Assembly: GCA_052327205.1 (NCBI GenBank)
Contig: CM126207.1
Location: 180,048,001-180,112,000, forward strand
From: Somniosus microcephalus
Lineage: Eukaryota
Direction: 5' to 3'
Length of the DNA: 64,000 nucleotides
Below are positions 14,826-56,122 of this stretch, in pieces; positions within the stretch are counted from its first letter, which is position 1, and each line of letters opens with the position of its first letter. Below the pieces are notes generated by a model. The model was not told the DNA's origin, did not search any database, and worked only from the letters and a program-made list of their open reading frames with translations. The position numbers were made by a program, and so were the translations under genes.

Positions 14826-14989
14826 GATGCCAAATGTGATGCCTTCCCAGGGTCGGACAGCCTGTCAGCAGCCATTCGGGCACAGTTGACTGTCACCTGT
14901 GGAATGGTATCCCAACAAGTCAATGCTTTCAGAAGAGGAGGAAGGGAGTGAAGGAAAGAAAAAACTACAAGGAAAAAGAACCAGGGGAA

Positions 14990-20530: not shown

Positions 20531-20604
20531 CCTTTTACCATTTATTTCTGTCTGCCTTTCACTTTCCTCTATTTCACTACATAGGTTTCTAGCCCCCTGC
20601 CATA

Positions 20605-20791
20605 CTAGTTTAAATGCTCCCGAACTGCTTTATCAAAAATTACCCCGAGAACATCAGTTCCATCTCTGCACAGGTGTAGACCGTCCCTTTTGTATAGGTC
20701 ACACCTACCACAAAACTGGTTCCAATGCCTCAAAAATTTAAAACCCTCCCTCTTACACCACTGCTCAAGCCACGTATTTAGCCTAACTATC
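20605..20791 (-). pseudogene. CR1 ORF1 C-terminal SGNH/GDSL esterase fragment
   Basis: LNTWLEQWCKREGFKFLRHW...LYKRDGLHL lies immediately upstream of ORF2. Confidence 0.8.
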
Positions 20792-22901
20792 CAGTTGTGA
20801 GATAATTCTTGATTTCCACAGTGAGAAGGTACAGAGGAGGAAGGATTTGCCAGACAGAGCATTGGAACTCAGAAGGAATAAGATAGTTCAGAGAATCTGA
20901 ATCAGCGAATCATATGGCACTTTCCTAGTATAAGTAGTATTAATAAAGTAACTATATCAGTGTATTGGTCAGGAGATACTCGAGAGGTCATTTTCTGAGT
21001 TTGCACTTCCGACACTGAGCATCACACGTTGGCAGGACCTATCGGAACACTGAGAGTAGCACGGAAGACAGAGAGTAGCACTCCCTCCCAATTTTCCATT
21101 CACCAGAACTAATCGGCGCCACATCAAATGGGCTGCACCATGGACACACAGTCCCTAACGCCCATATTCCAATACGCATACGCTCTGCACTGGGAGAACA
21201 AACCCCAAAAATGACCCCTTTGACATCTGCTTTGGGATTTCTGGTCTCTCTATCGCCCAAGCTCAGTTCTGCACCTTAGGGTGGCTGGGGTGCTACATCT
21301 CGGAAGACCACCAAGCATGGGTAGGATGCTCAGAGCCCCCCGGCAAATAGCCGAAAACACACTGGTGATCATCACATACTTTACTTAATCTTTTCTTGTT
21401 GGTGACCAGCGAAGCAGTATTTTCATGTTTCTATTTTGTATTTACCATTATTTATTTTGTTGTGATTTGTTGTTTAAAAAATAAATTGGGAAAAGGTTGT
21501 TCAATGCTGGATAAATGCACGGTGAGGTGGCTCAGTTAGACACAGGCCTGCCCACTAACTTATTTATAGTGGGATGGGAAACACGTGGCGAAAGAAAGGT
21601 TTATGGTTTTCACAGAAATAGTGAGCAGCAAAGAACCTCGCCTGCCTCTTTGGTTGCAAACAGTCCCATTGCTGTGTGATTATAAATCTCACTCCTGGCA
21701 GTTCCCAGATGTTGCAGGCGTGCCCAAGCATCAGACCTTTAGTGTAAGTGTAAGTACCAGGAACGAGATGTACTTACACTTACACTGAAGGACTGACACT
21801 GGAGTAAGTACCAGGAATGAGGTATACTTACCCCAGTGTCAATCCTTCAGTGTGAGGGTAAGTCAAGGAATGAGGTGTACTTACCCCAATGTCAGTCCTT
21901 CAGTGTGAGGGTAAGTCAAGGAATGAGGTGTACTTACCCCAGTGTCAGTCCTTCAATGTGAGGGTAAGTCAAGGAATGAGGTGTACTTACCCCAATGTCA
22001 GTCCTTCAGTGTGAGGGTAAGTCAAGGAATGAGGTGTACTTACCCCAATGTCAGTCCTTCAGTGTGAGGGTAAGTCAAGGAATGAGGTGTATGTTGTGTA
22101 TGTAATATGTGTGCTACTTTGAACCTATGGACAGGACTGCACAACTTGTTGGGCGTAGTGATACGCAGTACCACTCCTGGCCATAGGGGTATAAATAGTA
22201 CTGTGGGTACTGATCTCCCCTCAGTTCCCGCCTGTGGGCATGAAGTAAAGACCTACGTATAGTCCCTACCTCCAACCAGTAAAGACCTGTTTTATTGTTA
22301 CTGATTAAGTCTGAGTATTAATTACTTGAACAACTCACAGATTTAACACTGGCGACGAGTCTGATTCGGACCCTGCGGCAGTCACTCCACGGCAGCTTCG
22401 TCCACAGCCAGGACGTTGCAGAGAGGTTTCCACCCTCTCCACCCCACTGGAAGACATCCTGACCTCGGAGCCTCCATCGGCGACCGTCAGCTTCTTCTCC
22501 AGCTTGGTGGTGGGTAAGCCGTTGTCTGAGCCGGGCAGCGACGCGACAGGCAGTCGACCGCGTTGGCCGCACGAACGGGGCTGGGGGAGCTGGAGGAATA
22601 GGGCGCGAGAGCCGCTTCGAGCGGGAGGCGTTTCAACAGAGCGATCGCATCTCCTGATAAGAGCCGAGAGCCGCTTCGCGATCCAGCGATCGCATCCGCT
22701 GATAAGGGCCGCACTCGGGCGATCGCGGCGAAGATAAGGGCCGCACTCGGGGGCTGAAGGGAGACGGCGTTGGGGGACGGGTGAAGACCGCCAAGCGCGG
22801 GAAAACCGCCATTTTGTGGGCAGAGGACGACGGCAAGAGCGGGAAGCCGCCATCTTGGATAGCAGTAAAAAAAAAAAAATCTGAGAAATTGCAAATCTAC
22901 A

Positions 22902-24149
22902 ATGCCTAAACACGGGAATATTAGCACCTTTGATAGTGACCTCGAAGATTGGGCCATATATGTTGAAAGAGTAAAAAATTATTGTAAGGCCAATAAAATT
23001 CGTGACCAAGATAAAGCTCTAACATTATTAAATTTAATGGGTGCGAAGACATACGGGCAATTGAAACACCTGTTATCACCAGATGAACCGGCGGATAAGA
23101 CGTTCGATGAGATTGTTACTGTCCTGAAAGATCATCTGAACCCCACGCCGCTGATGCTAGCGGAACGATTTAAATTTTACGACAGAAGGCAGCTACAGCA
23201 TGAAAGCAATGCTGATTATTTGCTGGAATTGCGTAAATTAGCGAAATATTGCCAGTTTGGAACGGGACTGACAGATGCACTACGAGACAAATTTGTGTGT
23301 GGTTTATTTAAACAGGATACACAAAAGCGACTGCTCGAGGAGAATGAGCTGACGCTTGAGAAGGCGGTCACTATGGCAGCAGCACACGAAGCCGCAGCGA
23401 GAGGCACGGCAGTAATGCAGCTACGGTCACCGGAGCTCAGTGCACACAAATTGGGTGTGAGTTCTGGCAAATGTTATCGTTGTGGAAAGACAACGCATGA
23501 TCAGAACCAGTGTTGGTTTAAAAACCAAGAATGTAGAACTTGTGGTAGGCTTGGACATATAGCTAGAGTATGCAGGTCAGGGAAGAAGACCAGCAACAAG
23601 AAGTCACCGCAAGGAAAATACGCAAAGGTACACAAGGTGACCGAACAGGAGTCCGATTCAGACGCTAGCAGTAATGAACTGGCTAGCTTAAGCTGTAATG
23701 AACTGGCTAGCTTAAGAGTACTCAACGCTGGTAAGGGTGCAGACCTCCAGACAATTTGGGTCACTCTTCAGATAGAAGGAGTCCAAGTAAAACTGGAATT
23801 GGACACTGGATCGGCATTGACGGTCATAAATAAGAAAGATTACGGAAAGTTATTCCAACATATTCCCCTACAGGATACGGGGATTATATTGGAAACATAC
23901 ACGGGGCAAAGAGTGTACCCCATCGGGAAAATAGAGGTTGCAGTGGTCCACAAGGGCGAAGACAGTCAAATAATGGACTTATATGTGATATCTGAAGGAG
24001 GTCCTCCACTACTAGGACGGGAGTGGATTAGGAAAATGAATATGGACTGGCATTTCCTACAAACAATAACGAGTGAGAACTCGGTGAAGATAGTCGGCCC
24101 AGACTCTGGAACGGATGATGGTAAGCCCAACTCAGGTGCAAAAGACTAA
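22902..24149 (+). CDS. gag: Gag-protease of element C (415 aa, open)
   Basis: Close homolog of element B Gag-PR, with two CCHC knuckles, LDTGS and LLGREW. Confidence 0.9.
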   Translation: MPKHGNISTFDSDLEDWAIYVERVKNYCKANKIRDQDKALTLLNLMGAKTYGQLKHLLSPDEPADKTFDEIVTVLKDHLNPTPLMLAERFKFYDRRQLQHESNADYLLELRKLAKYCQFGTGLTDALRDKFVCGLFKQDTQKRLLEENELTLEKAVTMAAAHEAAARGTAVMQLRSPELSAHKLGVSSGKCYRCGKTTHDQNQCWFKNQECRTCGRLGHIARVCRSGKKTSNKKSPQGKYAKVHKVTEQESDSDASSNELASLSCNELASLRVLNAGKGADLQTIWVTLQIEGVQVKLELDTGSALTVINKKDYGKLFQHIPLQDTGIILETYTGQRVYPIGKIEVAVVHKGEDSQIMDLYVISEGGPPLLGREWIRKMNMDWHFLQTITSENSVKIVGPDSGTDDGKPNSGAKD

Positions 24150-25118
24150 GTTTCAGCACAGAATTCCACTGAGCAACAACAACATAGTTTAACTGTGGAT
24201 TCTGAGTCTGGCAAGTCTACTGATGTGCCCATTTCTGAGGGACACCGGGCTCGAACTCAACTCCATTTCAAACTACAACAGCAATTAGAACAAATGCTTC
24301 GCCGTTTTGAGCAAGAGTTGAATGCAACGAAAGAGTTCTTTGATATAGAGTTGGAGAATCTGGAAAGACAACAGAAGCAGCTGATGGAGAAAATGGAGCA
24401 GGAGCACACAAAACGTCTGATGTCAGAGGAGTTAACGGTCAGCCAACTCCTGCATATGCTGAAGGACAGGACTCTGAAATGGGAAAAACTTGAACACGAA
24501 CTTCAATATTCAAACGAAAGGGGTTCGGAGCTCTCAAAGGTTATTGGAAGAGCTGAGGTGGCAACACAGACTGAGATGACTGCAACAGAGCAGCCCTTGG
24601 ATGCCAAAAGTACGCTGACTCACGTCAACGTAGAACAACAGACCGCTGAAACAGCTGCTCCGGTAGAGGGATTGAATAGTCCGATCAATCAATCTCCAAA
24701 AGAAGTTGAAGTAGTAAAATCTCAAATGAGGTCATTAGTAAACGACTTGCTGAAAGCCCAGAAAAAGCTGGATGAAGAGGTACGCATGAAGAAGTCTCTT
24801 CAGGAAAGATGTCTGGACTTGGAACAAAAGCTGGCTAACGCCCAGCTGGGTATGGAGGAAATAGAAGACCCTCTCGCTGGCCTAGATCAGGACGACACCG
24901 AATATTACTATGTCCTGTCCTGCCCAACTTGTAACTTCGACTCCCACCATACAGAAATCATGGAGGAGCACCGAAAGTCTACGGAACATCGGGAGAAGGT
25001 GGCTCTACTACGGAAAAAGGAGGGAGAGAAGGAGGAACTGCGCATGCAGCTGGCAGCTGACAGTGGAGCCCAGAGAGTCTCCAAGAAGCAGAAAAGGAAA
25101 AGTCGAAACAGAAGATGA
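24150..25118 (+). CDS. In-frame continuation after a single TAA: chimeric coiled-coil / Zn-finger cargo protein
   Basis: Same frame as gag. The TAA at 24147 aligns with AAA in element E. Heptad-rich, ending in CPTC...H..S.EH and a basic tail. Confidence 0.8.
24237..24419 (+). other. STK10: Captured STK10/SLK coiled-coil fragment
   Basis: [42 protein letters not shown] versus recalled human STK10 [42 protein letters not shown]. Confidence 0.85.
24423..24830 (+). other. OPTN: Captured optineurin coiled-coil fragment
   Basis: EELTVSQLL...EVATQTE...[37 protein letters not shown] versus recalled human [13 protein letters not shown]...EIETQTE...[37 protein letters not shown]. Confidence 0.82.
24891..25118 (+). 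other. DNAJC21: Captured DNAJC21-like C2H2 zinc finger and basic patch
   Basis: LSCPTC...[18 protein letters not shown]...[10 protein letters not shown] versus recalled human LYCPAC...MKNHEKSKKHREMVALLK...QKLSKKQKKK. Confidence 0.72.
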
Positions 25119-26599
25119 CCCATCTGAACCATTATTACCTCTACCAGATCACACACGTGGTCCCTCCGAACGGAGCCAATTCAGTTCGGAAGTTCAAACT
25201 GTTAAATCCATGGAAGGACTATTGAATGAGTCACTCCAGCAACGTGAACCGACTCCACCACAGAGATTGAATCTGTGAACTGTTTTCCGCAGAGACTGAA
25301 TCTGTGATCTGTTTTGACATGAAGTTATCTATGTATCTATGTTATTCTGTTATGTAAACCTGAAGTTATATATGTATATATGTTATTACGTTATGTTAAA
25401 TGGGGAGATGACTGTAAAGCTAGGAAGGGAGGAATGTTGTGTATGTAATATGTGTGCTACTTTGAACCTATGGACAGGACTGCACTACTTGTTGGGCGTA
25501 GTGATACGCAGTACCACTCCTGGCCATAGGGGTATAAATAGTACTGTGGGTACTGATCTCCCCTCAGTTCCCGCCTGTGGGCATGAAGTAAAGACCTACG
25601 TATAGTCCCTACCTCCAACCAGTAAAGACCTGTTTTATTGTTACTGATTAAGTCTGAGTATTAATTACTTGAACAACTCACAGATTTAACAGTGTACTTA
25701 CCCCAATGTCAGTCCTTCAGTGTGAGGGTAAGTCAAGGAATGAGGTGTACTTACCCCAGTGTCAGTCCTTCAATGTGAGGGTAAGTCAAGGAATGAGGTG
25801 TACTTACCCCAATGTCAGTCCTTCAGTGTGAGGGTAAGTCAAGGAATGAGGTGTACTTACCCCAGTGTCAGTCCTTCAGTGTGAGGGTAAGTCAAGGAAT
25901 GAGGTGTACTTACCCCAATGTCAGTCCTTCAGTGTGAGGGTAAGTCAAGGAATGAGGTATACTTACCCCAATGTCAGTCCTTCAGTGTGAGGGTAAGTCA
26001 AGGAATGAGGTGTACTTACCCCAATGTCAGTCCTTCAGTGTGAGGGTAAGTCAAGGAATGAGGTGTACTTACCCCAATGTCAGTCCTTCAGTGTGAGGGT
26101 AAGTCAAGGAATGAGGTGTACTTACCCCAGTGTCAGTCCTTCAGTGTGAGGGTAAGTCAAGGAATGAGGTGTACTTACCCCAGTGTCAGTCCTTCAGTGT
26201 GAGGGTAAGTCAAGGAATGAGGTGTACTTACCCCAGTGTCAGTCCTTCAGTGTGAGGGTAAGTCAAGGAATGAGGTGTACTTACCCCAATGTCAGTCCTT
26301 CAGTGTGAGGGTAAGTAAACAGAATACATATTAACATACCATCTGACAAATAGAATGTCTACACAATGCCTCACTTCCATCTGCAGTTAGAAAGGCAGAT
26401 CAATATTATCAATTTTCAATTGAATGTAATTAAAATAAATATTCCAATTTTTTTGTTAATTTCAATATATCTCCTGTTTTCCTAACACCAATAAATTACA
26501 ATATAAACAGGAGGAATTCAGTAACACGAGGACAGAACAGATCAATAATGGATCATTAAATATAGCTGGAAATGAATGGCTGACTTACTGGGCCAACCC

Positions 26600-32670: not shown

Positions 32671-35600
32671 CAGGCAATACAATGGTAAGGGGGAACCTGA
32701 AACCAACCACAGTCACAGGCAGTGATGAATGGAATATTTCATCACATTCACCCCTTCTATAGATTTAGTCTGTTCGGGGGTTTGGTAGTCCTCTGCGACC
32801 GACGTGGCTGTTGTGGTGTCGCGGGTGTCGGCTGGGTGTCCCCGGTGGCCTCCTGGGTCTCTGCCGGGGGTGCCGCCAGGGTTGTTGAAGGGGTAGTTGG
32901 TGGGGGTGCCGTTGGTCGATTTTCTTCCGGGGGTGATGAAAGAGTAGTGGGTGGGTAAGAGTTGCTGTGGTCGTTGTTGCTGCTATTGCCGTGGTTGTTG
33001 TCGTTACCGGCTGGGGCGACGTCTTTTATTGACACGGTGTCCTCCCTTCCGTCGGCGTGCCGGACATACGCGTATTGGGGGTTGGCGTGGAGTAGGTGCA
33101 CTGGCTCCACGAGAGGGTCCGTCTTATGGCCCCTCACATGCCTTCGCACGAATACCGGACCCGGGGTGGAGAGCCATGACGGCATGGATACGCCTGAGGT
33201 GGATTTCCGGGGGAAGCTAAACATTCGTTCATGAGGCGTGGCATTAGTGGCAGTACACAATAGCGACCGTATCGAATGGAGCACATCTGAGAGGACTTCC
33301 TACCAGCGGGAGATAGGGAGGCCCTTGGTCCTTAGAGCTAGAGTGACTGCTTTCCATACTGTCCCGTTCTCTCGCTCCACTTGACCGTTACCCCGGGGGT
33401 TGTAGCTGGTGGTACGGCTCGTGGCGATACCCCTGGACAGCATGTACTGGCGTAGCTCTTCACTCATGAAGGACGCCCCCCTATCCGTGTGGATGTAGCT
33501 CGGCATACCGAACAGGCAGAACAGGCTGTTGAGGCATTTATTGACCGTGGCGCTGGTCATGTCTGGGCAGGGGAAGGCGAATGGGAACCGGGAGTATTCG
33601 TCCACAATGTTCAGGAAGTAAACATTGCGGTCGACGGACGGGAGGGGGCCCTTGAAATCTAAGCTGAGCCGCTCAAAGGGCCGTGTAGCTTTGATTAAGT
33701 GGGCTCTATCAGGGTGGTAGAACCGAGGCTTACACTCAGCGCAAGTGCGGCAGTTCCTGGTCAGAGACCGAACTTCCTCAATCGAGTAGGGTAAGTTGCG
33801 GGACTTTATGAAGTGGAACAGCTGCGTGACCCCTGGGTGGCAGAGGTCGTTGTGGAGGGTCTGTAGCCGATCCCCGGTGGCGCTGGCACACATCCCTCGT
33901 GAGAGGGCATCTGGGGATTCGTTAAGGGCCCCTGGCCAGTAAATGATGTCATACTCGAAGGTGGAGAGCTCGATCCGCCACCTAAGAATCTTATCATTTT
34001 TAATCTTCCCCCTCTGTTTATTATTGAACATAAATGCTACCGACCGCTGGTCGGTAAGTAGGGTGAAGCGTTTGCCGGCTAGGTAGTGGCGCCAGTGGCG
34101 CACTGCCTCCATGATGGCTTGGGCCTCCTTTTCCACGGAGGAGTGTCTGATCTCGGGCCCTTGGAGGGCCCTCGAGAAGAAAGCTACGGGCCGCCCCGCC
34201 TGGTTGAGGGTGGCCGCCAAGGCGAAGTCAGACGCATCACTTTCCACTTGAAATGGAGTGTTCTCGTCCACTGCCTGTAGCGTGGCCCGCTCAACATCCT
34301 GCTTAATGCTTTTGAAGGCGGTGTGGGCCTCAGCAGAGAGCGGAAAAGAGGATGCTTTCAAGAGGGGGCGGGCTTTGTCGGAGTAGTTGGGGACCCATTG
34401 GGAATAATAAGAAAATAACCCCAGGCACCTTTTCAGGGCTTTGGGAGTGTTGGGCAGGGGCAGCTCCCGTAGGGGGCGCAATCGGTCGGGGTCTGGTCCG
34501 ATTTCCCCATTCTCCACCACGCTGCCTAGTATGCAGAGGCGCGTGGTGTTGAAAACGCACTTGTCCTCGTTGTAGGTGAGGTTGAGTTTTTGTGCGGTTT
34601 TCAGGAACCTCTCGAGGTTCGAGTCGTGATCCTGCTGGTTGTGACCGCAGATGGTGACGTTGTCGAGGTAGGGGAAGGTTGCCTGCAAGTGGTGGTCATC
34701 GACCATGCGATCCATCTCCCTCTGGAAGACCGAGACCCCATTCGTCACCCCAAAGGGGACTCTGAGGAATTGGTAGAGGCGTCCGTTCGCCTCGAAGGCG
34801 GTGTACGGGCGGTCCTCTGGTCTGATAGGGAGCTGGTGGTACGCTGACTTGAGGTCGATGGTGGAGAACACCCGGTATTGGGCGATTTGGTTCACCATTT
34901 CTGATATGCGGGGTAGCGGGTAGGCGTCTAGTTGGGTGTACCTGTTGATCGTTTGGCTATAGTCGATCACCATCCGTTTCTTCTCGCTACCCCTTACCAC
35001 CACCACTTGGGCGCGCCACGGGCTATTGCTGCATTCAATAATGCGCTCTTTCAGGAGCCTGTCTACCTCGGTTGCGATAAACCGCCTGTCCTCCCAGCTG
35101 TACCTCCTGCTTTTGGTCGCTATTGGCCGGCAGTTAGGGGTAAGGTTCGCGAATAGCGAAGGCGGCTTTACCTTCAGGGTAGCCAGGCCGCACACTGTGA
35201 GGGGCGGCTGGGACCCACCGTACTTGAGCGTGATGCTTTGGTGGTTGCACTGGAAATCCAGGCCCAAGATCACGCTCGCGCATAGATTCTTCATGATTAA
35301 TACTTTAAAATTATCGTATACAGTCCCGTTAACGGACAATTGTACCGTGCAGTAACCCAGAATGGTCGATGTCTGGGTTTTATCAGCCATAGAGATGGTA
35401 CCCCGAGTAGGGACCACCTTTAGGGAGAGTTGTCGTGCCAGTTCCGGGTGGATAAAACTCTCCGTGCTTCCACTGTCAATTAAACATTTAACCCCGCACC
35501 CGTTTACCTCGATGTCCACCATTGATTTGGATAGCGGGTGGGGCCTGGTCTGGTCCACTGTGACCGATGCCACTGTAGGGCCCTGATCGAGACAAGATGG

Positions 35601-36870
35601 TGTCCGCGCTGTCTGCTCACAAGATGGCAGACCCCACGAGGTCGGGCAAGATGGCGTCCAAGATGGCCACTCCCACGGCGCACACGCGGCGGTGGCGGGT
35701 TTTGGTTTTCCAGCGGGGTTCCCTCTGCACACCTTCCCAAAGTGCCCCTTCTTACCGCACTTAAAGCAGGTGGTGCCTTTCGCCGGGCACAGGTTTCTGG
35801 TGTGCTTTGGCTGCCCGCAGAAGTAGCAGTTGGGTCCCCGACGCGTCGCGGCTGTCGTAGGGCTTCTGGGGGGAGAGCGGGGCCCCAACGGTGTCGGGCT
35901 GCCGGGCGGGGAAGATGCCTTCCAAGATGGCGGCGCCCTTGGTGCACACGTGGCAGCGTGGACGGCGCGGGCTGAAGAGTAGGCGTCCGAGTTTCTCTGG
36001 GCCACATCCAGGGATCGCGCGGTGTCCGCAGCCTGTTTCAGGTCCAATCCCGTTTTTTCCAGCAGTCTTTGCCGGATGTAAGTGGAGCTGAGGCCTGTGA
36101 TAAAGGCATCGCGAACAAGCTCGTCGGTGTACACTGCGGCTTTTACATCTCGGCACTTGCAGTCTTTGCCAAGCATTTTCAGGGTGCCTAGGAACTCCTC
36201 CACCGATTCCCCAGGTCGCTGTGCGCGAGTGGCGAGCAGATGCCTAGCATACACCTCATTCGTAGGCTGCTGGTAATGCGCCTTTAAGATGTCACAGGCG
36301 GCCAGGTACGTGTCGGCGTCTTGGATGAGGGGGTAAACCCGGTGGCTTACCCAATTCCGCAGAATTCCGAGTTTCATACTCGCAGCGTCCGTAGCGTCTT
36401 TGACGGCTGCGGAATTGTCCAGGAAGAATTCCATACACATAAACCAGTGTCCGAAGCATGCTGATGCGTCCGGAGCATGCTGATCCAAATCCAAACGTTC
36501 GGGTTTCAGGAGTTGATCCATTGTGTTGAAAAATAAGTTAATACAATTGATGTGCCTCAATAATCCCGAGACTCGATGTCAGCGAAACAAAACAAGGCTT
36601 TTATTAACTTAGAAGATAACACGCAGTGGAGAGAGGTATCTTCCCTGGAGGTCTGCAGTACTGGCTGTGAGGCCAGACTGAGCTGGCTTACATAGAGGCC
36701 AGGTATGGGCGGAGCCCTACACAGAACACATTCCATACATTCCAATACACAATACAATGGTGAGGAGAAACCTGAAACAAACCAACCACAGTCACAGGCA
36801 ATACAATGGTAAGGGGGAACCTGAAACCAACCACAGTCACAGGCAGTGATGAATGGAATATTTCATCACA
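32671..36870 (-). mobile_element. Ty3/Gypsy element D (different lineage, YLDN RT), 3' LTR truncated
   Basis: 5' LTR at about 36870-36548 (TGTGATG...CACATCA). Only 76 bp of the 3' LTR remain (32746-32671). PPT GAAGGGGTGAA. Confidence 0.9.
32757..36521 (-). pseudogene. Single gag-pol ORF of element D with one nonsense codon at 33300
   Basis: Start MDQLLKPERL, two CCHC knuckles, IDSGS, YLDN, ESDAS, HTDRG. ORFs 33300-36560 and 32757-33284 share a frame. Confidence 0.92.
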
Positions 36871-45395: not shown

Positions 45396-48300
45396 GAAAA
45401 TTGCAGACCTGGATTATGTCCCCTCTCGACCTTTTTTTCTCCAATCAAAACAAGTTCCATTCAGTGAGTCTTTTCCATAACATAAGAGCCCCAAGTCCCA
45501 AAATTATCCTGGTCCCTCCTTTTGAAAGTGCCCAAATTGCACATAAAATTATTTTTCAACATGGGTAGAGATGATTTGGCCCCACAAACCTTATAAAATT
45601 GAGGAATGAAATTAGTGAAACTGTAAATGACATTTTTTCATGAGTTTATTAAATTCAGGAGAGATTCCAGGGAAAAGGAAAGTGGCTAACATAAATCCAT
45701 TATTGGACCTGTCAAGTCTTATTCACGTGCAGTAAGATGCACTTATTCAGGTTTAACCTATTTTGCTGTATTTCACGCCAAATAGTAAACAGAGCTCCAG
45801 CTGTTTAAATAGGCTTGTGATCTCCCTTACTAATTTTGATGATAAATTATATATCCATGAAACTGACAACTGCGCATTTTTCATGGGCCAAGAGGCAGAC
45901 TTGGAAAATCTAGACTCTAGTAAATATAACAGCAGTTGTGGCGAACTTTCAATCAAATTTTGAGAGGTTTGGTGGGTGAACACTTGGAAAAGCGGAATTT
46001 ATTGAAGGACAGGATTTGGAAAGGGTGACCATGTTTAACTAACATGCTGGATTTTTTTTTTAAAAAGATGTTACTAATATGGGGGCATGGAGAAATGCAC
46101 CTGATGTTATATCTGATACCAGCTGATCTTCTGCGGCATCGGCTCCTGTGGCACAGGTAGCCTGTAATCTAGAGCATGGCTGTGATGGTTAGCCACGGAT
46201 GTGGCCTGCCCCCTTAAGGTCACTGTTTATGTATTGGGATGTGGTCTAAATAGGTCAATTATGGGTGAATTGTTGTTCAAATTTTCTCCAGACTGCACAG
46301 ATCCTTTTCTTGAGCAGAAGCCAGGTTATCTGATACTCAGACAAAACAGCAGGAAATAACTTGCTTTCTTTCACTTTCTTTGTAATTGTTTTTTTAAGAT
46401 TGCTGAGATGCGATTTTTATGATGTTTCATAGAAATATTACACCTGAAACGTGACGTAGGAACAGGAGTAGGCCCTCGAGCCTGTTCCGCCATTCAATTG
46501 GATCATGGCTGCTCTGTACCTCAACTCCATTTACCCACCTTCGCTCCATATCCCTTGACACCCTTACCTAACAAAAATCTATCAATCTGTTTTGAGAGTT
46601 CCAATTGACCCAGCTTCGACAGCATTTCGGAGCAGAGAATTCCAGATTTCTATTAGCCTTTGTGTGAAAAAGTGTTTCCTGATTTCCCTCCTAAATGGCC
46701 GAGCTCTAAATTGAAGATTATGTCCCCTTGTTCTTGATTCCCCCAACAGAGGAAATAGTTTCTCCGTATCTGTAGTGTATGTACCCGTCTACCTTTAAGA
46801 GAACTATTGTATGTAACCGTTCATCTTTAAGAGAACTACTTTAGGTGTGGCACTACTTGTTTGGCTTCTGTATACTGTAATACCGACGGTGACCACACCG
46901 GTATATAAGTGTTGTGGCATGATTCCTTGGGCAGATTCGCCCTGACCTTCGAATAGTAAAGACCTGTTTGTTTGTTATTCCTGAAGCCTGTGTCGTTATT
47001 AACTGTACAACCCACAGACTTTACAGTGGCGACGAGTCCGATCGTACCCTGCGGCAAGACTACCAAAGCAACTAAAGAGCGTCGAAGAGAGGCAACCGCC
47101 CTCGTCGTTCTGCTGGAAGAAAACATGAAGCTGCAGCAATAGAAAGGAGGAAGACTTTAGCAACAAAAGCTTCCATCAGCAACAGGCACTGACTACCCTT
47201 CTACCACGGTGCGGAGTGAGCCGATCAGCAGGAAACAAGGCGGCCGCGGAGACTGTGAGTAGGGGAAAGTGTAAAGAATATCCGGAGGATAAGGGCTGTG
47301 CACTCGACCACGGTCGAGGGGGAGCGGAGCCGGTCAGAAAGTCGGGTCCAACGGCGTCGTGAGACAGCCGGACTGCGATCGGCGGGAAAAAGCCGGGCAG
47401 CGACCGAAGCCACGAAGCGCTGAGACCGGGAGCAGGCGCGGGAAGAGAGAAACTCAGCCGCAGCCGGGGAGGGAAGCACCGGACTGCGTGAGGGCTGGGA
47501 GGCGAACGGGAACAGAGCGTGTGGGAGAGGCAGAGCCGACCAAAGGAGGCTGCGCGAGAGCCAGTCCAGCGGCTGAACTGTCCTCCACCAACGGGGTACC
47601 CAGCGCCGGTAGAGCCGAGTGTGCGGGAGAGAGACAGAGCCGAGCAAGGGGAGAGAGACTGCGCGAGAGCCAGTCCAGCGGCTGAACTGTCCTCCACCAA
47701 CGGGGTACCCAGCGCCGGTAGAACCGAACGTGCGGGAGAGAGAAAGACAGAGCCAAGTAAGGGGAGCTGTGCGAGAGCCAGCCCAGCGGCTGAACCTGTC
47801 CGTTGTGGGGAAAGCGTACCCCTTCCACCAGGGAAGAAACGCGGGAAGCCGCCATTAGGCGGCGAAGACAACAGAAGCGGGAAACCGCCATTGAAGTGGG
47901 TGGGGAGAGAAGGAAAGAGCGGGAAACCGCCATTTTCGCGGGAAAAGCCGCCATCTTAGGGAAAAAAAAAGAAAAAAATTGTGTTGTACCCAAGGAAAGG
48001 AAGATGCCTAAGCGGGGGGACATCAACGATTTTAATTCTGAGATAGAAGACTGGGCCACGTACATGGAACGTATTGAGATACATTGTAAGGCTAACAAAA
48101 TAGCTAAGGATGAAAAAGCTTTAACCTTACTTAACATGATGGGTGCGAAAACATTCGGGTTGTTGAAGCATCTTCTCTCACCAGCTAAACCGGCGGATCA
48201 GACTTTCGATGATATTGTAGCAGTGCTGAAGGATCACTTGAACCCCACACCGTTGATACTGGCTGAACGATCCAAATTCTATGCAAGAACGCAGAAGACG

Positions 48301-49385
48301 AAAGCAACACGGAATACTTGGTCGAACTGCGTAGGCTAGCGGAACACTGCCAGTTCGGAGGGAATCTGACAGAGGCACTGCGAGACAAGTTCGTATGTGG
48401 ATTGTCCAAAGAAGGGACGCAAAAGCGACTACTGGAAGAGAACGACCTCACACTAGACAGGGCTGTCCTTATAGCTGCATCGCACGAAGCCGCAGCGAAA
48501 GGAACGGCGGAAATGCAGCTAAAGGCGGCGGCACTCGGGGTGGACCAAATTACCTCAAGTACAACAAAATGCTATCGTTGTGGGAAGACAACACACGACC
48601 AGAATCAATGCTGGGTTAAGAACCAAGAATGTAGGAAATGTGGCAAACTGGGTCACATCGCTAAGGTATGCCGGTCAGGGAAGAAGACCAACAACCAAAG
48701 GAAGCCACCACAAGAAAAGTACAACAAGGTACACAAGGTGGCTGAGAAGAGTTCAGACGAACAGAATACAGACTCAGACCCAAACAGCCAGGAGCTGGGT
48801 AGTCTGAGAATTCACAATGTGAGTAAGGAAGCTGACCTACAAACTATCTGGGTCATACTAAAAATAGCTGGAGTCCAAGTAAGAATGGAGTTGGACACTG
48901 GATCAGCTCTATCAGTCATAAATCGAAGGGACTACCACCGGCTATTCTCTCACATACCCTTAAGAAATACCAAGTTCGTATTGCAGACATACACGGGGCA
49001 TAAGGTATACCCCATGGGGAAGATAAGAGTCAAGGTGAGAGATAGGGGTAAAGAACACCCAAGAATGAACTTGTACGTATTATCTGAGGGAGGACCACCA
49101 CTTCTAGGACGAGAGTGGATCAAGAAAATAGACATGGAATGGCACTATCTAAAAGCCATAATGAGTGAGGACTCGGTGCAAGCTATCAGCTCAGATTCTG
49201 AAACGGATGACGATAAGACCAACTCAAATATGGAAGACAAGGCTAAAATGAACTTGCCGACTATGGTGGAGAAAACGAAGACATGCATAAAGGCTTATGC
49301 CACCGAGAAGAATAAAGCTTCAGAGCAGAACTCCAGTTTGACAGAGAATTCTGAGCCTGTTCAAGTTAAGGACTTATCCACGACG

Positions 49386-49532
49386 GAAGAACACCGAACT
49401 CGGACTCAAACTTATTTCAAAGTACGACAACAATTAGAACAGTTGAGTTACCGTCTCGTACAAGAGATGAAAACAATGGAAAAGTTCTGGGACACCGAAT
49501 GGGAGAACCTGGAAAGACAGCAGAGGCAGCTA
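49386..49532 (+). other. STK10: Captured STK10/SLK fragment (diverged homolog of 24237-24385)
   Basis: EEHRTRTQ...QQLEQ...KFWDTEWENLERQQRQ. Confidence 0.78.
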
Positions 49533-49601
49533 GCTCAAGCAAAGAGCGACCATAGAGCCATCGTGACCAATTACCGATCACATCTCCCTTATGATGTTCA
49601 G
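49527..49601 (+). other. ANKRD24: Captured C-terminal motif of the ANKRD24/RAI14/UACA family
   Basis: QLAQAKSDHRAIVTNYRSHLPYDVQ versus recalled human ANKRD24 [25 protein letters not shown]. Confidence 0.62.
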
Positions 49602-49634
49602 GAGTTAGAATATTTGCATGATCTAGAGATACAG

Positions 49635-50105
49635 CATAAAGGCAAACCACGCTACACTGAGGATTTTGTTCTGCAATTGGAGACGGAGCTAGTGCAAGCA
49701 AGGTTAAGAGAAGCTGAATCGCAGTGTGCACTTAAAGATATGCAGAAAAAAATCTTGGACATGGAAAAGAGAAACGCTTCTTTACCTGATGTGAATAATG
49801 TGGCCATGTTGCAAGAGGAGCTTATAGGGGCGAAACTGAAAGAAGCTAAGCAAAGGATGTTGGAACTTGAAACACAGAACCAAATCAGCAGTAACCAGCT
49901 ATGTCGAGCAGAGAAGGAGTGCTATGGTCTACATGAGAAGGTGCAATATCTCTCAGCCCAGAATAAGGGACTACTCACTCAGTTAAATGAAAGTAATCGG
50001 AAAATGGCTGAGATAGACTGCAAGAATAAAGAAGATTTGATGGCAGTGAGACTTCGAGAGGCAGATAGCATAGCAGCCTTGGCTGAACACCAACAGGAAA
50101 TTGCG
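49635..50105 (+). other. EVI5: Captured EVI5 coiled-coil fragment with an in-frame internal deletion
   Basis: EDFVLQLETELVQARLREAESQCALKDMQ, EKVQYLSAQNKGLLTQL and MAVRLREADSIAA are near-identical to recalled human EVI5. Confidence 0.9.
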
Positions 50106-50729
50106 AAAGAAGCAAATGAAGAGGAATCTTCAGGAAGCCAGGATGTTATTCCAGTTCTTCTCTACGACTCCTTACAAGCAGAGTGTGAGAAGTTGAAAGA
50201 ACAGTATGAACAGGCCCAGGCTACAATTCTGGAGGGGGTTAACTCGGCAACCTCCGAAAAGCTAGTTTCAGTAGAAGCATATGAACAACTAAAGGTTGAA
50301 CATGAGCAAGAAGTCCAAAGGCTGCAGGAAATTCTTGATGAGCTCAAGGCCAAGACAGACTCATCGGTAGAAGTTCCATCCATAGATGAGAAATTAGAGG
50401 GGAAAGACATGGCAGAACATGAAAGACAAGATGTCCAAGAACTCATAAAAATATTGAAGGAAACCCAAGACAAATATGAGGCGGCAATGTCCAAGGTTCA
50501 ACAACTTGAAGAACAGATTCAACTGGGAATCCTTTCAGTGGAAGAAAAGGAAACTGTAAGAAACACAGAGACTGTAAGAATGGTCCCTGAACATGAGCTA
50601 GAGAGCATCAGGGCGCAACTTTTCCGAGCGCTGAAAGCCAAAGTACAAGAGGAACAGAAGGTGGAAGCATTGGAGGAAAAGGTGGATGAAATGGAGAAGA
50701 CTCTGATCCACAGTGTTCCCGTGGAAGAG
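50106..50729 (+). other. ANKRD24: Captured central coiled-coil of the ANKRD24/RAI14/UACA family
   Basis: DVIPVLLYDSLQAE versus recalled ANKRD24 EVIPLALYDSLRAE. ETQDKYEAAM...QIQLGILS resembles the RAI14-family motif ETQ.KYEEAM...QMKLGLVS. Confidence 0.68.
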
Positions 50730-51100
50730 TTAACGGTCAGCCAACTCCTTCATATGCTGAGGGAAGAGACTCTGCAATGGGAACAATCTGAACACGAGCT
50801 TCAATCTTCAACGGGAAGGAGTTCGGAGCTCTCAAAAGTTTGGGAAATAGCTGAGGTTGCAAAACAGACTTTACTGGGATGCCAAAAGTATGCTGAATCG
50901 CGTCTATGTGAACAACAGAATGTTGAAACAGCTGCTCCAGTAGAAGGATTGAATAGCCCGATCAATCAATCCCTGAGGGAAGGGGAAGTGTTGAAATCAC
51001 AAATGAGGTAATTAGTGAAGGATTTGCAGGAAACCCAGGAAGAGCGGGATGAAGATGAATGCATGAAGAAGTCTTTTCAAGAAAGATGTCTAGGGAAGGA
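50724..51100 (+). other. OPTN: Captured optineurin fragment
   Basis: [15 protein letters not shown]...MKKSFQERC, homologous to 24423-24830. Confidence 0.78.
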
Positions 51101-51200
51101 ACCACAGTCAGCTAACGTCCAGATGGGTAAGGAGGAAGTAGAAGGCCCTCTCGCTGGCCTAACTCAGGACGAACCCGAATATTACCATGACCTGTTGAGT

Positions 51201-51386
51201 GACACTGAATATTACGAGGATGTGGTCTGCCCAGTTTGTGATGAAAACTCCCAAAGTGCCGAAATCAGGATGAAGCACTTAAAGTCGAAGGAACATAGAG
51301 AGTTGGTGGCGCTACAGCTGGCAGCTGATAAGGGAGCCCCGAGAGTCTCCAAAAAGCAGAAAAGAAAAAGAAGAAGCAGAAGATGA
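51201..51386 (+). other. DNAJC21: Captured DNAJC21-like zinc finger and basic tail
   Basis: YEDVVCPVCD...HLKSKEHRELVAL...[11 protein letters not shown]. Confidence 0.7.
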
Positions 51387-53898
51387 TAACTATCGCAAAT
51401 ATTATCACTTCTACCAGATCATGCGTGGACCCTACGAAAGGAGTTAAATCAGTTGGGAAGTAGGAAAATATCAAGGCAACCCAGTTGTTGTAAAAGTCAG
51501 CACTGCTGGTTCAGCAGGACGAAAATTCAAGCTGTTACGTCAAGAAAAGGATATGGAGGAGTCACGCTAGCAATGTGAACCATCTACACCAAAGAGATGT
51601 TGTTCGGACCGAGTCAAGATCAGAGACTGAATCTGTGAACTGTTCCCGCAGAGACTGAACCTGTGAACTGTTTCCCACCGAGACTATGTCTGTAAATTGT
51701 TTTATATGAAGTTGAAGATATGTTATGTTTAATGGGGACTCTGTATGTAATAAGCTAAAAAGGGAGGATTGTAGTGTATGTACCCGTCTACCTTTAAGAG
51801 AACTATTGTATGTAACCGTTCATCTTTAAGAGAACTACTTTAGGTGTGGCACTACTTGTTTGGCTTCTGTATACTGTAATACCGACGGTGACCACACCGG
51901 TATATAAGTGTTGTGGCATGATTCCTTGGGCAGATTCGCCCTGACCTTCGAATAGTAAAGACCTGTTTGTTTGTTATTCCTGAAGTCTGTGTCGTTATTA
52001 ACTGTACAACCCACAGACTTTACAGTATCTCCTCTATCGAATCCTTTTAACATTAGCACCTCAATCAGATCGTCCCTCAATCTTCTAAAGTGATGAAATA
52101 ACGTGTGATCTCTCAAGTATGACAGATGAGCTGAGCACAAGATTCTTTATAAACGGGTACCTCTGGCCAGTCTGAAACGGACGTGAATTTCTGCAATTCA
52201 AGTGGTTAGTACAGCCTACAGTTACATGTAACCCAATGTCCAGTCTCTAAAAAAAATCCCAGATCGAAAAAAATTAGAGTGAGGTATGAATTATCAGTTT
52301 CTCTGTAGCATGGATATGGCACAGAAAATAGGGGAAATCTAAAGACTTCAGATTAGCTGTATAAGAACATAAGAAATAGGAGCAGGAGTAGGCCATTTGG
52401 CCCTTCGAGGCTGCTCCGCCATTCACTAAGATCATGGCTGATCTTCTACCTCATTTCCACTTTCCTGCACTATCCCCATATCCCTTGATTCCCTTAATAT
52501 AGGATCATAGAAAGTTACAGCACGGAAGGAGGCCATTTCGGCCCATCATGTCTGCGCCAGTCAACAAAGAGCTATCCAGCCTAATCCCACTTCCCAGCTT
52601 TTGGTCCGTAGCCCTGCAGGTTAGAGCATCCCAAGTACTTTTTAAATGTGGTTAGGGTTCCTGCCTCTACCACCCTGTCAAGCAGTGAGTTCCAGACCCC
52701 CGCAACCCTCTGGGTGAAGACATTTCCCCTCAAATCCCCTCTAAACCTTCCCCCAATTACTTTAAATCTGTGCCCCCTGGTTTTTGACCCCTCTGCTAAG
52801 GGAAATAGGTCCTTTCTATCCACTTTATCTATGCCCCTCATAATTTTATACACCTCAATAAGGTCTCCCCTCAGCCTCCTCTGTTCCAAGGAAAACAGAC
52901 CCAGCCTATCCAGTCTTCCTCATAGCTAAGATTCTCTACTCCCGGCAACATCCTTGTAAATCTCCTCTGTACCCTCTCTAGTGCAATCACATCCTTCCTG
53001 TAATGTGGTGACCAGAACTGCACGCAGTACTCTAGCTGAGGCCTAACTAGTGTTTTGTACATTTGAAGCATAACCCCCCCTGCTCTTGTATTCTATGCCA
53101 CGGCTAATAAAGGCAAGCATTCCGTATGCCTTTTTAACCACCTTATCTACTTGGCCTGGACATGCACTCCAAAACCCTTTGTTCCTCTACACTACTCAGT
53201 GTCCTACTATTTAATGTGCATTCCCTTTCCTTGTTAGCCCTCCCCAAATGCATTACCTCACACTTCTCCGGATTGAATTCTATTTGCCACTGTTCTGCCC
53301 ACCTGACCAATTTATTGACATCTTCCCGCAGTCTACAGCTTCCTTCTTCAGTATCAAACACACAGCCGATTTTAGTATCTGCAAACTTCTTAATCATACC
53401 CCTATATTCAAGTCAAGATCGTTGATATATACCACAAAAAGCAAGAGACCTAGAACTGAGCCCTGCAGAACCCCACTGGAAACAGCCTTTCAGTCACAAA
53501 AACACCTATCAACCATTACCCTCTGCTTCCTGTCTCCGAGCCAGTTTTGAATCCAACTTGACATTTTGCCCTGGATCCCATGGGCTTTTAACTTCGTAAC
53601 CAGTCTGCCATGTGGAACCTTATTAAAAGCCTTGATAAAGTCCATATACACTACATCAAATTCACTACCCTCATCTACCCTCCTTGTTACCTCCTCAAAA
53701 AATTCAATCAAGTTTGTCAGACACGACCTTCCCTTAACAAATCCGTGCTGACTATCCTTGATTAATCAGTGTTTTTCTAAATGAAGATTTATCCTGTCCT
53801 TCTTTCCAATAATTTTCCCACCACCGAGGTTAGGCTGACTGGCCTGTAATTACTCAGTTTATCCTTTTCTCCCTTTTTAAACAAGGGTACCACATTAG

Positions 53899-56122
53899 TG
53901 TTGTGTATGTACCTTTAAGAGAATAACTGGTCTCAGACTGCAGTACCGGCAGTGACCACCCCTGTATAAAAGGCGCTAGAGAGCCTCGGTTGTTTAGATT
54001 CGTTATGGACTTCCACCAGTAAACATCTCTTTGTTTTCACTCCTGCTAGTCCGTGTCTAAATCATTCACGGACTTAACACTGGTGACGAGTAAAGAAACG
54101 AACTTACCTGCAACTCAGCAGCAGCTCCGACGACGTTGTTGAAGGTCGGAGCCAGAAGAAAGAAAAAAAAAAGAGGCCATTGAAACTCGAGAAACGGGCA
54201 TTGACCGTCAATCATCGGGTTCAAGGCTCTGCAGGAGCGACTTTCCAGAGCCAGGCTGGGTTCCTCGGTCCGTGGTTTCCCAGCTAATCGGGCTGGTGGC
54301 AGGTAGTGCTCTGATCCTTCCTGGGTTGCGGCGGGCTGAGGCTCGATCGGGTGGCCTTTCAACGGGGCCGGGCAGCGAGTCGGGAAGCAAGGAGAGAGAG
54401 AGGGTGGAGCACACAGGGCGCGGCCGGTGTTTCGAAGCTGGGCAGCGTTCGGACCTCAGAAGAGGGCGGGAAGTGTCCCAGAGGGTCCGCTCCACAACGG
54501 GAAAATAATAAAAGAAAAAGAATACGCGCAAGAAACCGTGGAAAGCAGCGCTAACAACAGCGGGGAAGAAGACAAAGCGCGGGAGGCGCCATTTTGTTAA
54601 ATCGGAGAAGAAGGCAAAGCGCGGGAGGTGCCATTTTAGATTTGCAAGATGCCGAAGACTGGCTGTATCACTGCTTTTGATAATACATTAGAGGACTGGA
54701 CCACGTATGTGGAAAGAGAAGTAATTCCACCTAAGTTGATGGATAGAGTGCTCAATGAGCTCCATGAGGGTCATCTGGGTGGGGTAAAAATGAAGAGCTT
54801 AGCCAGAGCGTTTGTGTGTTGGCCGGGAATCGATAGAGAAATCGAAGAGATGACCAAGAGCTGTGCAGGATGCCAGAAGGTCCAAAACGCCCCACCACAA
54901 GCTCTTCTGCATCCATGGGAGTGGCCCTCATCTCCATGGCAAAGGGTGCACATTGATTTTGCTGGTCCCTTCATGGACTCGATGTTTTTAATTGCGGTGG
55001 ATGCACATTCAAAGTGGCCAGAGGTAATAAAAATGTCCTCAACCACCACGGAAAAAACTATCACAGTTTTACGAACCATATTCGCCAGGAATGGGCTGCC
55101 TGAACAGATTTGCTCTGACAATGGACCACAGTTTGTGTCTGAAGAGTTCCGGAGGTTCTTAAAGAACAATGGTGTTAAGCATTACACATCTGCCCCATAT
55201 CATCCAGCCACTAATGGATTGGCCGAGAGGTTTGTCCAAACATTCAAGAAGGCTATCAAGGCAATGTGTAATGAAGATATACCCCTACAACATAAGGTGG
55301 ACAACTTCTTGTTTGCCTACCGGAATGCGACACATGCGGTTACCAACCAAACTCCAGCCATGATGTTCTTCAATCGAAGACTACGATGCCGCTTGGATTT
55401 GGTTAAGCCAAACGTCCGAAGAGATGTGGAGAACAGGCAGTTTCAGAATATGAATGAAAGGCCGACCAGGAGTTTTAAGATAGGTCAACCAGTTTTGGCC
55501 CAGGACTACCGCACTGAGAAATGGCAGCCAGGAACGATTTGTACACGACAAGGACCTCTCATGTATACCGTGGACGTTGGGGCGAGCATTGTAAGATGCC
55601 ATGTTGACCAGATTCTAGAGTCACTGGAAAACGTCAACTCCACACCACGATCTGATACACCTGGTAATGAAATCGACGTTCCAATTGCAGCTACCGCAGA
55701 ACCGGTAATATTGGAAGCAGATGAACCAAACAACGACATTGATTCCGACTCAACATTGCCAGAAGAACCTGTTACCCCAAAGAGGCGTTATCCAGACAGA
55801 ATCAGGAAGCCTCCTCAAAGACTGAACTTATAATTGCTTAAACTTAACCACTGTATCTAGTAACAGTAATTGTGATTGTAATTCATTATCAGTTAGTTGT
55901 TAAATGAATGTTATGTACTGTTTATCTAAAAGGGGAGGAATTGTTGTGTATGTACCTTTAAGAGAATAACTGGTCTCAGACTGCAGTACCGGCAGTGACC
56001 ACCCCTGTATAAAAGGCGCTAGAGAGCCTCGGTTGTTTAGATTCGTTATGGACTTCCACCAGTAAACATCTCTTTGTTTTCACTCCTGCTAGTCCGTGTC
56101 TAAATCATTCACGGACTTAACA
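53899..56122 (+). mobile_element. Internally deleted Gypsy element F (integrase only)
   Basis: 181-bp LTRs at 53899-54079 and 55942-56122, identical by eye. TSD ATTAG, PBS TGGTGACGAG, PPT AAAAGGGGAGGAA. Confidence 0.96.
54649..55833 (+). CDS. Intact integrase fused in frame to the first 23 aa of Gag (394 aa)
   Basis: MPKTGCITAFDNTLEDWTTYVER joins EVIPPKL...HEGH...CAGC, HIDFAGP, SDNGPQF, NGLAER. No stops. Confidence 0.9.
   Translation: MPKTGCITAFDNTLEDWTTYVEREVIPPKLMDRVLNELHEGHLGGVKMKSLARAFVCWPGIDREIEEMTKSCAGCQKVQNAPPQALLHPWEWPSSPWQRVHIDFAGPFMDSMFLIAVDAHSKWPEVIKMSSTTTEKTITVLRTIFARNGLPEQICSDNGPQFVSEEFRRFLKNNGVKHYTSAPYHPATNGLAERFVQTFKKAIKAMCNEDIPLQHKVDNFLFAYRNATHAVTNQTPAMMFFNRRLRCRLDLVKPNVRRDVENRQFQNMNERPTRSFKIGQPVLAQDYRTEKWQPGTICTRQGPLMYTVDVGASIVRCHVDQILESLENVNSTPRSDTPGNEIDVPIAATAEPVILEADEPNNDIDSDSTLPEEPVTPKRRYPDRIRKPPQRLNL

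Follow-up and report, generated by a model that had tools for sequence, protein, structure and literature searches.

A compensated frameshift pair in the host-gene cargo of a Gag-protease Gypsy family in Somniosus microcephalus

Elements C and E, two copies in a 64,000-nt stretch of the Somniosus microcephalus genome (assembly GCA_052327205.1, contig CM126207.1, positions 180,048,001 to 180,112,000; hereafter the window), are non-autonomous Ty3/Gypsy LTR retrotransposons that encode Gag and protease and lack RT. In their family, a single frame continues past the protease through a cargo of STK10, EVI5, ankycorbin, optineurin, and DNAJC21 fragments. Within the optineurin fragment of E, losses of 20 nt and 1 nt restore each other's frame, and this compensating pair is real, inherited, and derived, in a large element family. 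The reading we prefer, to which we give roughly an even chance, is that a near-neutral coiled-coil spacer may carry translation to a selected DNAJC21 finger and basic end in a semi-autonomous Gypsy family. The features on which the analysis draws are as follows:

9504–14826 (+): element B, a full gag-PR-RT-RNase H-integrase Gypsy element, decayed copy
22092–25691 (+): element C; LTRs with 1 difference in 256; target duplication GTGTA
22902–24146 (+): gag-protease of C, followed by a stop at 24147–24149
24237–24428 (+): STK10 fragment of C
24411–24863 (+): optineurin fragment of C
24599–24632 (+): block in C matching the shifted block of E, read in the host optineurin frame
to 25118 (+): DNAJC21 finger and basic end of C
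46771–52024 (+): element E; LTRs of ~255 nt with 1 difference in 257; target duplication GTATC
48004–49150 (+): gag (capsid, zinc knuckles) and protease of E; frameshift in this copy near 48270–48295
49386–49538 (+): STK10 coiled-coil fragment of E; 31 of 51 residues identical to a shark STK10
49620–50105 (+): EVI5 coiled-coil fragment of E; 64-residue gap against shark proteins
50106–50729 (+): ankycorbin (RAI14/ANKRD24-like) coiled-coil fragment of E
50724–51140 (+): optineurin fragment of E (coil, linker, coil); stop at 51009–51011 in this copy
50871–50909 (+): compensated frameshift of E; net 20-nt loss junction, 11 shifted codons, 1-nt loss
51141–51386 (+): DNAJC21 C2H2 zinc finger and basic end of E
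51556–51770 (+): integrase-end remnant and 3′ untranslated region of E, alignable to autonomous element B

Each of elements C and E is flanked by a 5-nt target duplication and contains a primer site and a polypurine tract, which in E lie after the 5′ LTR and before the 3′ LTR, respectively. In both, the coding sequence includes gag zinc knuckles and an aspartic protease, and a protein family search of the two copies returned no RT or integrase match. The domains of element B follow the Gypsy order of protease, RT, RNase H, and integrase (RVT_1, RT_RNaseH, then rve); its gag-PR is 81% identical to that of C and 75% to that of E, and it has the polypurine tract and the start of the primer site in common with E. 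B is the likely helper type for the family, and neither the element nor B showed an envelope gene within the window. A remnant of B's integrase end persists in the 3′ untranslated region of C and E, indicating that the cargo took the place of pol, from the protease end to near the integrase end. Both window copies are themselves broken, a point left out of the initial annotation: C by its stop at 24147–24149, and E by the gag frameshift as well as the stop at 51009–51011.

Several features of the surroundings deserve mention. Element C is inserted in a 53-nt tandem array (21723–22091 and 25692–26319). The end of the E leader and the start of its gag (47900–48300) have no close match in 128 sampled copies (82–90%, with flanks at 96–99%), and this stretch is probably a mosaic with an unsampled lineage. 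An internally deleted relative of element A (3911–9106) lies at 53899–56122; it has identical LTRs, and its gag start runs in frame into integrase, forming a 397-residue frame. A second, unrelated Gypsy element occupies 33300–36578 (−) with a 1,092-residue gag-pol frame. A 988-residue frame at 17663–20629 (−) resembles a LINE endonuclease-RT, which we take to be CR1-like, and has many fragments elsewhere in the window.

The cargo genes were named by protein searches, and all lie in the sense strand and in the host frame; the best protein matches all came from cartilaginous fish. The host optineurin gene is found on contig C17 of the 6.45-Gb genome, where six of its exons span about 11 kb. The same six exons are contiguous in a long-form copy, at 91–96% identity, and four are contiguous in copy C, which shows that the optineurin piece derives from spliced mRNA. 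At the protein level, short shared sequence is seen at two junctions, KRL between STK10 and optineurin and EE between ankycorbin and optineurin, the donor DNA covering optineurin only. We propose that the family kept gag and protease, lost RT, RNase H, and integrase, and would have gained pieces of spliced host mRNA in the place of pol by template switching, as the short shared junction sequence suggests. The product, judging from the single frame, would be one Gag-protease-cargo polyprotein.

The architectures differ by whole modules, and each was seen with one frame from gag to tail: ~735–780 residues with STK10 and a short optineurin, ~860–910 with the long optineurin, ~985 with ankycorbin added, and ~1,115–1,145 with EVI5 added as well. 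The EVI5 module is missing in its entirety (486 nt) from a sister lineage, and all sampled lineages retain some STK10 and the second optineurin coil. Among 42 copies whose sequence extends 3 kb or more upstream of the block, a set partly hand-picked for diversity, 20 have a frame that starts at the gag start and covers the block. About 117 of the 150 top-scoring C-type matches, which are selected young copies, have frames of at least 700 residues as counted by eye. In public contigs under three organism labels, each of the six module-skipping joints listed has a net length of 486, 405, or 150 nt, the 150-nt joint having unknown letters between its sides. Between C-type and E-type copies, dS is ~1.0–1.2 in gag-PR (22902–24146 and 48004–49150) and 0.1–0.5 in the cargo; the far larger gag-PR value implies that the cargo moved between different gag and LTR backbones.

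The optineurin sequences yielded further observations. Five long-form copies (L094, L124, L125, L144, and L148) retain the optineurin stretch DSFVEI, which C and E lack and which we take to be the autophagy LIR motif; dN/dS of its region in the long-form lineages is 0.47 on 45 codons, which is not significant. Tandem repeats of the start of the first optineurin coil are present in L125, L147, and L148. A host optineurin exon (L117:344-539, G000:C17) has one extra base near its start relative to the element copies, which shifts the exon against other shark optineurins and reflects either an assembly error or a broken allele. A second NEMO family match (L115, G000:C41:31.58 Mb), 37–43% identical to optineurin, is probably the NEMO gene. 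Broader searches with the cargo returned little: a DNA search with C's cargo, by a method that skips common words, gave no matches, a solved-structure search gave none either, and a protein atlas search gave generic coiled-coil clusters only. No fusion protein of the C/E kind was among the matches of the protein searches, although its absence is not thereby shown.

The frameshift pair was located by global alignment of C 24420–24760 with E 50718–51040. Relative to C, E is 21 nt shorter here: a net 20 nt is missing upstream of GGATGCC (50877; C 24599), and a further 1 nt is missing downstream of 50909. The 33 nt between the losses read GCQKYAESRLC in E and a different 11 residues in C. Four other gap settings, applied to a shorter stretch, returned the same losses, which bears out both the losses and the peptide given in the initial annotation. 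The host optineurin exon is read in C's frame; C therefore keeps the host frame and E's pair is derived, ruling out the reverse. Against the host, the eight aligned element copies have a 21-nt in-frame loss in common, and the E lineage carries the losses of 20 nt and 1 nt in addition. Exact-pattern searches place the short block (1 nt less) at 1,269 genomic places and the long block at 7,473, both counts being lower bounds. The 20-nt loss is also present in 30 of 30 sampled short-block copies (27 measured from an anchor and 3 from translation), and the long upstream part in 30 of 30 sampled long-block copies, one of which has a private 1-nt loss. A sequencing error, raised in the initial annotation as a possible source of the 1-nt indel, is ruled out by the 1,269 places and by the presence of both losses in every sampled short-block copy. 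These copies cover several sub-lineages and architectures, so the pair predates those splits.

Forms with a single shift are nearly absent. Genome pattern searches found none for either of two versions of the short upstream junction (0 and 0) and three places with the long upstream junction, each a different private deletion; no amplified single-shift form was found in these exact-pattern searches. In the shifted frame, C's sequence reaches a stop after 16 codons, and the 1-nt loss falls at about codon 11. Public contigs under three organism labels cover this stretch, and the extra base of the long form is listed by run X6 only, at the reporting threshold. In our model, the two losses would have had one origin, in a tolerant linker and within one or two rounds of replication, and spread as a pair only. 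The block is weak evidence by itself, because it falls in the optineurin linker, the least conserved part: in eight shark proteins, 6 of the 27 linker columns are invariant, compared with 29 of 49 and 31 of 52 for the coils on either side.

Wider evidence for frame conservation comes from 128 distinct copies, each aligned to whichever of 11 natural reference copies fitted best, one duplicate locus having been dropped (129 to 128). Shared cargo indels, defined as those with both states in at least three of the 128 copies, comprise 15 rows that are multiples of three, some of which may be one event seen from two references, and six that are not. These six are the 20-nt loss and a 7-nt run-on shift, both counted twice, together with the 1-nt loss and a 2-nt change at the stop; none of them produces an early stop. 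By comparison, 12 of 67 shared indels in non-coding sequence are multiples of three (p = 1e-5 against the cargo); in gag-protease, all four shared indels are in frame. The initial annotation had proposed testing whether shared indels are in frame more often than private ones. The shared ones are mostly in frame; the contrast with single-copy cargo indels, of which 26 of 54 are multiples of three, is not significant on raw rows (15:6 against 26:28, p = 0.08). Also on the opposing side, two cargo frameshifts occur in two copies each; the copies of one pair are separated by 5 kb and differ at 2 positions over 1,200 nt.

Stop codons point in the same direction. Non-CpG stops present in at least two copies number 2 against ~9 expected; single-copy stops are low as well (16 against 34 expected), so the ascertainment of young copies contributes. 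The stop of E at 51009–51011, 374 nt before the normal end, is found at four exact places and in one more sampled copy. The four other stop copies match the window copy at only 1–2 of 12–13 rare sites, the stop included, and one belongs to another lineage. With no other rare states in common, the stop recurred and did not spread, and its inherited spread is ruled out. Shared frameshifts and stops, whose abundance in the cargo would have spoken against selection for an open frame, are thus not common: inherited stops are rare and inherited indels keep the frame. To that extent, the suggestion that translation through to the 3′ end is selected receives support.

Could this pattern arise with no selection on the cargo at all? 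Switching between purine-rich, codon-biased coiled-coil mRNAs would tend to be in frame, and a few active source copies might be open by chance. The cargo is 61–66% purine, its junctions carry short shared sequence, and the copies are young (85 mismatches in 9,653 LTR positions), so few founders dominate. This account is already disfavoured and we consider it improbable, since it accounts neither for a 20 + 1 pair compensated within 16 codons, nor for how few stops are inherited, nor for the conservation of the zinc ligands, and lineages that are 0.1–0.5 apart in cargo dS are still open.

The main rival to the preferred reading, appreciably less probable than it, holds that nothing but the open frame counts: with an early stop, the 3′ untranslated region would become long and the genomic RNA would be exposed to nonsense-mediated decay. 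Amino-acid change is near-neutral in most of the cargo, as this explanation would have it, and for 8 of 11 reference copies where it was found, the normal stop precedes the polypurine tract by 310–433 nt. A run-on lineage of 207 copies has a longer, not a shorter, frame. There is also a precedent in Rous sarcoma virus, whose unspliced RNA is described as destabilised by premature stops through Upf1 (PMC2925335). Deletion of the cargo would, however, be a simpler cure for decay, yet all sampled lineages keep cargo and some have gained modules. A stop only 374 nt before the end failed to spread, and invariant zinc ligands and a basic motif that undergo synonymous change are left unexplained by RNA decay.

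Selection on sequence differs strongly along the polyprotein. A codon model with up to 11 reference copies gave dN/dS values of 0.18 for the capsid, 0.02 for the nucleocapsid, and 0.28 for the protease (each p < 1e-11 against 1), and the protease catalytic motif is present in 40 of 41 copies. In the cargo, STK10 (0.85, p = 0.38), optineurin without the shifted block (0.81, p = 0.2), and ankycorbin (0.69, three sequences, p = 0.36) are not different from 1, whereas the value of 0.30 for EVI5 is unreliable (three sequences, odd kappa, flat profile). Recombination between lineages blurs the trees of the codon model. Against the host gene, 84–88 optineurin codons show 11–20 amino-acid-changing and 3–10 silent differences in 10 of 11 copies, the remaining copy having failed to align. 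Pairwise counts give dN/dS of 0.4–0.6 in several cargo pieces, so weak selection on the coils is possible. The comparison by module that had been proposed at the outset therefore separates gag and protease (0.02–0.28) from STK10, optineurin, and ankycorbin, and the cargo behaves as the spacer that the coiled coils had been suggested to form. In the preferred reading, too, the coiled-coil pieces would be a largely neutral spacer.

It is unlikely, in our estimation, that the coiled coils are themselves functional and need only stay helical, for example by oligomerising Gag-protease in the place of Pol or by acting as decoys for host partners. All four captured spacer pieces come from coiled-coil regions, some STK10 and the second optineurin coil are retained in every sampled lineage, 33 of 83 coil positions are invariant, and prolines are few (1 against 3.6 under neutrality, p = 0.09). 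However, dN/dS does not differ from 1, and changes are no more conservative than neutral ones (mean BLOSUM −0.24 against −0.14). Whole modules have also been gained or lost (486 nt; the N-terminal part of optineurin), and the most numerous lineage has the shortest cargo.

The other indels listed in the initial annotation fared variously. The 24-nt duplication is confirmed, with 11 of 30 C-type copies lacking it, and the EVI5 internal deletion appears as the 64-residue gap. Shared indels of 12 nt and 30 nt lie in the regions of the ETVR and EYY duplications, and the 15-nt gag difference in C was seen by comparing translations only.

Three lines of evidence set the end of the frame apart. First, all four zinc ligands of the DNAJC21 finger are present in one frame in 124 of 128 copies; the remaining four, as far as checked, have no ligand substitution, three carrying nearby frameshifts and one a frame that ends just before the finger. 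Second, the ligands are invariant at 4 of 4 positions against 2 of 19 other finger positions (17 of 19 vary; p = 0.002), and two ligands each use two codons in at least three copies, that is, with shared synonymous changes. Private ligand changes number 0 against ~5 expected from LTR divergence, which indicates that this calibration is loose. Third, the motif RVSKKQKRK matches host DNAJC21, and in-frame copies show only K to R variation. On the opposing side stand the dN/dS of finger and tail as a whole, 0.57 (p = 0.08), and the 207-place lineage, which has an inherited 7-nt shift after the finger: it keeps the finger, loses the DNAJC21 basic motif, and reads on into the integrase remnant to end in another basic stretch. 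The finger thus seems to be needed, while the exact basic tail can apparently be exchanged. A protein family search for host DNAJC21 matched another gene. One copy (L141 / L162) has a duplicated zinc finger before the basic end.

These findings qualify the original claim that an open frame is selected rather than a sequence. The frame part holds, but sequence matters at the frame end, in the zinc ligands and the basic motif. Between the two mechanisms put forward in the initial annotation, delivery of the terminal finger appears to fit better than RNA stability. In the preferred reading, the element needs the end of the protein, finger plus basic stretch, and this obliges the spacer to keep its frame open; the protein presumably favours its own RNA because otherwise broken copies would spread too. 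A link between translation of an RNA and particle assembly is described for yeast Ty1 (PMC3945221). The finger and basic end would most likely bind nucleic acid or provide a nuclear-targeting signal, and they would act inside particles shared with the autonomous helper. Yeast Jjj1, a DNAJC21 homologue, is described as binding the large ribosomal subunit near the exit tunnel (PMC5066618). A bolder possibility, which we hold only tentatively and think doubtful, is that host parts have made a new protein end: the finger and tail, on a coiled-coil arm, might tether Gag and its RNA to ribosomes or to helper RNA, or carry the DNA of shared particles into the nucleus, so that a Pol-less element out-competes its helper.

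The C/E family matters beyond this window. It numbers thousands of copies in a vertebrate germline, and 8,700 places of 3.6–5.3 kb correspond, as a rough estimate, to some tens of megabases. Its polyprotein provides a natural experiment in which selection on the frame can be told apart from selection on the sequence, and the family implies an LTR element whose protein favours its own RNA. Annotation may miscall its copies as paralogues of optineurin, STK10, EVI5, or ankycorbin. No published account of the family was found by title or abstract opening, a search of incomplete coverage, and repeat databases may hold an entry.

Acutely transforming retroviruses are helper-dependent, and in them captured cellular mRNA replaces pol in an in-frame gag-onc fusion. 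The C/E family is similar in that captured host mRNA replaces pol and is fused to gag in frame, and different in that env was seen neither in the element nor in the putative helper B, and in that the cargo drifts, comes from several genes, and exists in thousands of germline copies. With no env in the helper within the window and a near-neutral cargo, the family is not an acutely transforming retrovirus. The wheat elements RLG_Sabrina_SA and RLG_WHAM resemble it in that the gag-protease frame is intact, RT and integrase are absent, and copies are numerous; they have an autonomous partner, as the C/E family probably does; the parts of the source that deal with these plant elements describe no host mRNA cargo behind the protease, and the extra ORFs of other Sabrina variants replace gag-protease (PMC9744471). 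In the einkorn wheat pair RLG_Quinta and RLG_Cereba, as presented in PMC11302176, the non-autonomous partner likewise has Gag plus an extra domain, with gag swapped by recombination; Quinta's domain is of unknown origin and comes with no protease, whereas the C/E cargo is traced to named host genes and spliced exons. Extra ORFs in rotifer elements, some of them coiled-coil, are reported as separate ORF3s (PMC5408684). In the LTR-mediated retrocopies of animals, internal ORFs are likewise replaced by pieces of host mRNA, including multi-gene chimeras (Tan et al. 2016, PMC5131818). As that account has it, they too have a sense and often in-frame orientation and mobilisation as non-autonomous elements; their junctions carry short shared sequence, which is seen at the protein level at two C/E junctions; and they are young low-copy loci, with loss-of-function mutations in 14 of 21 older ones (PMC5131818). 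The C/E family, by contrast, joins up to five genes in one frame to a selected gag-protease at no fewer than 8,700 places. LTR gene capture is known mostly from rare, decaying copies, whereas here serial capture has produced a multi-gene fusion that is open across lineages.
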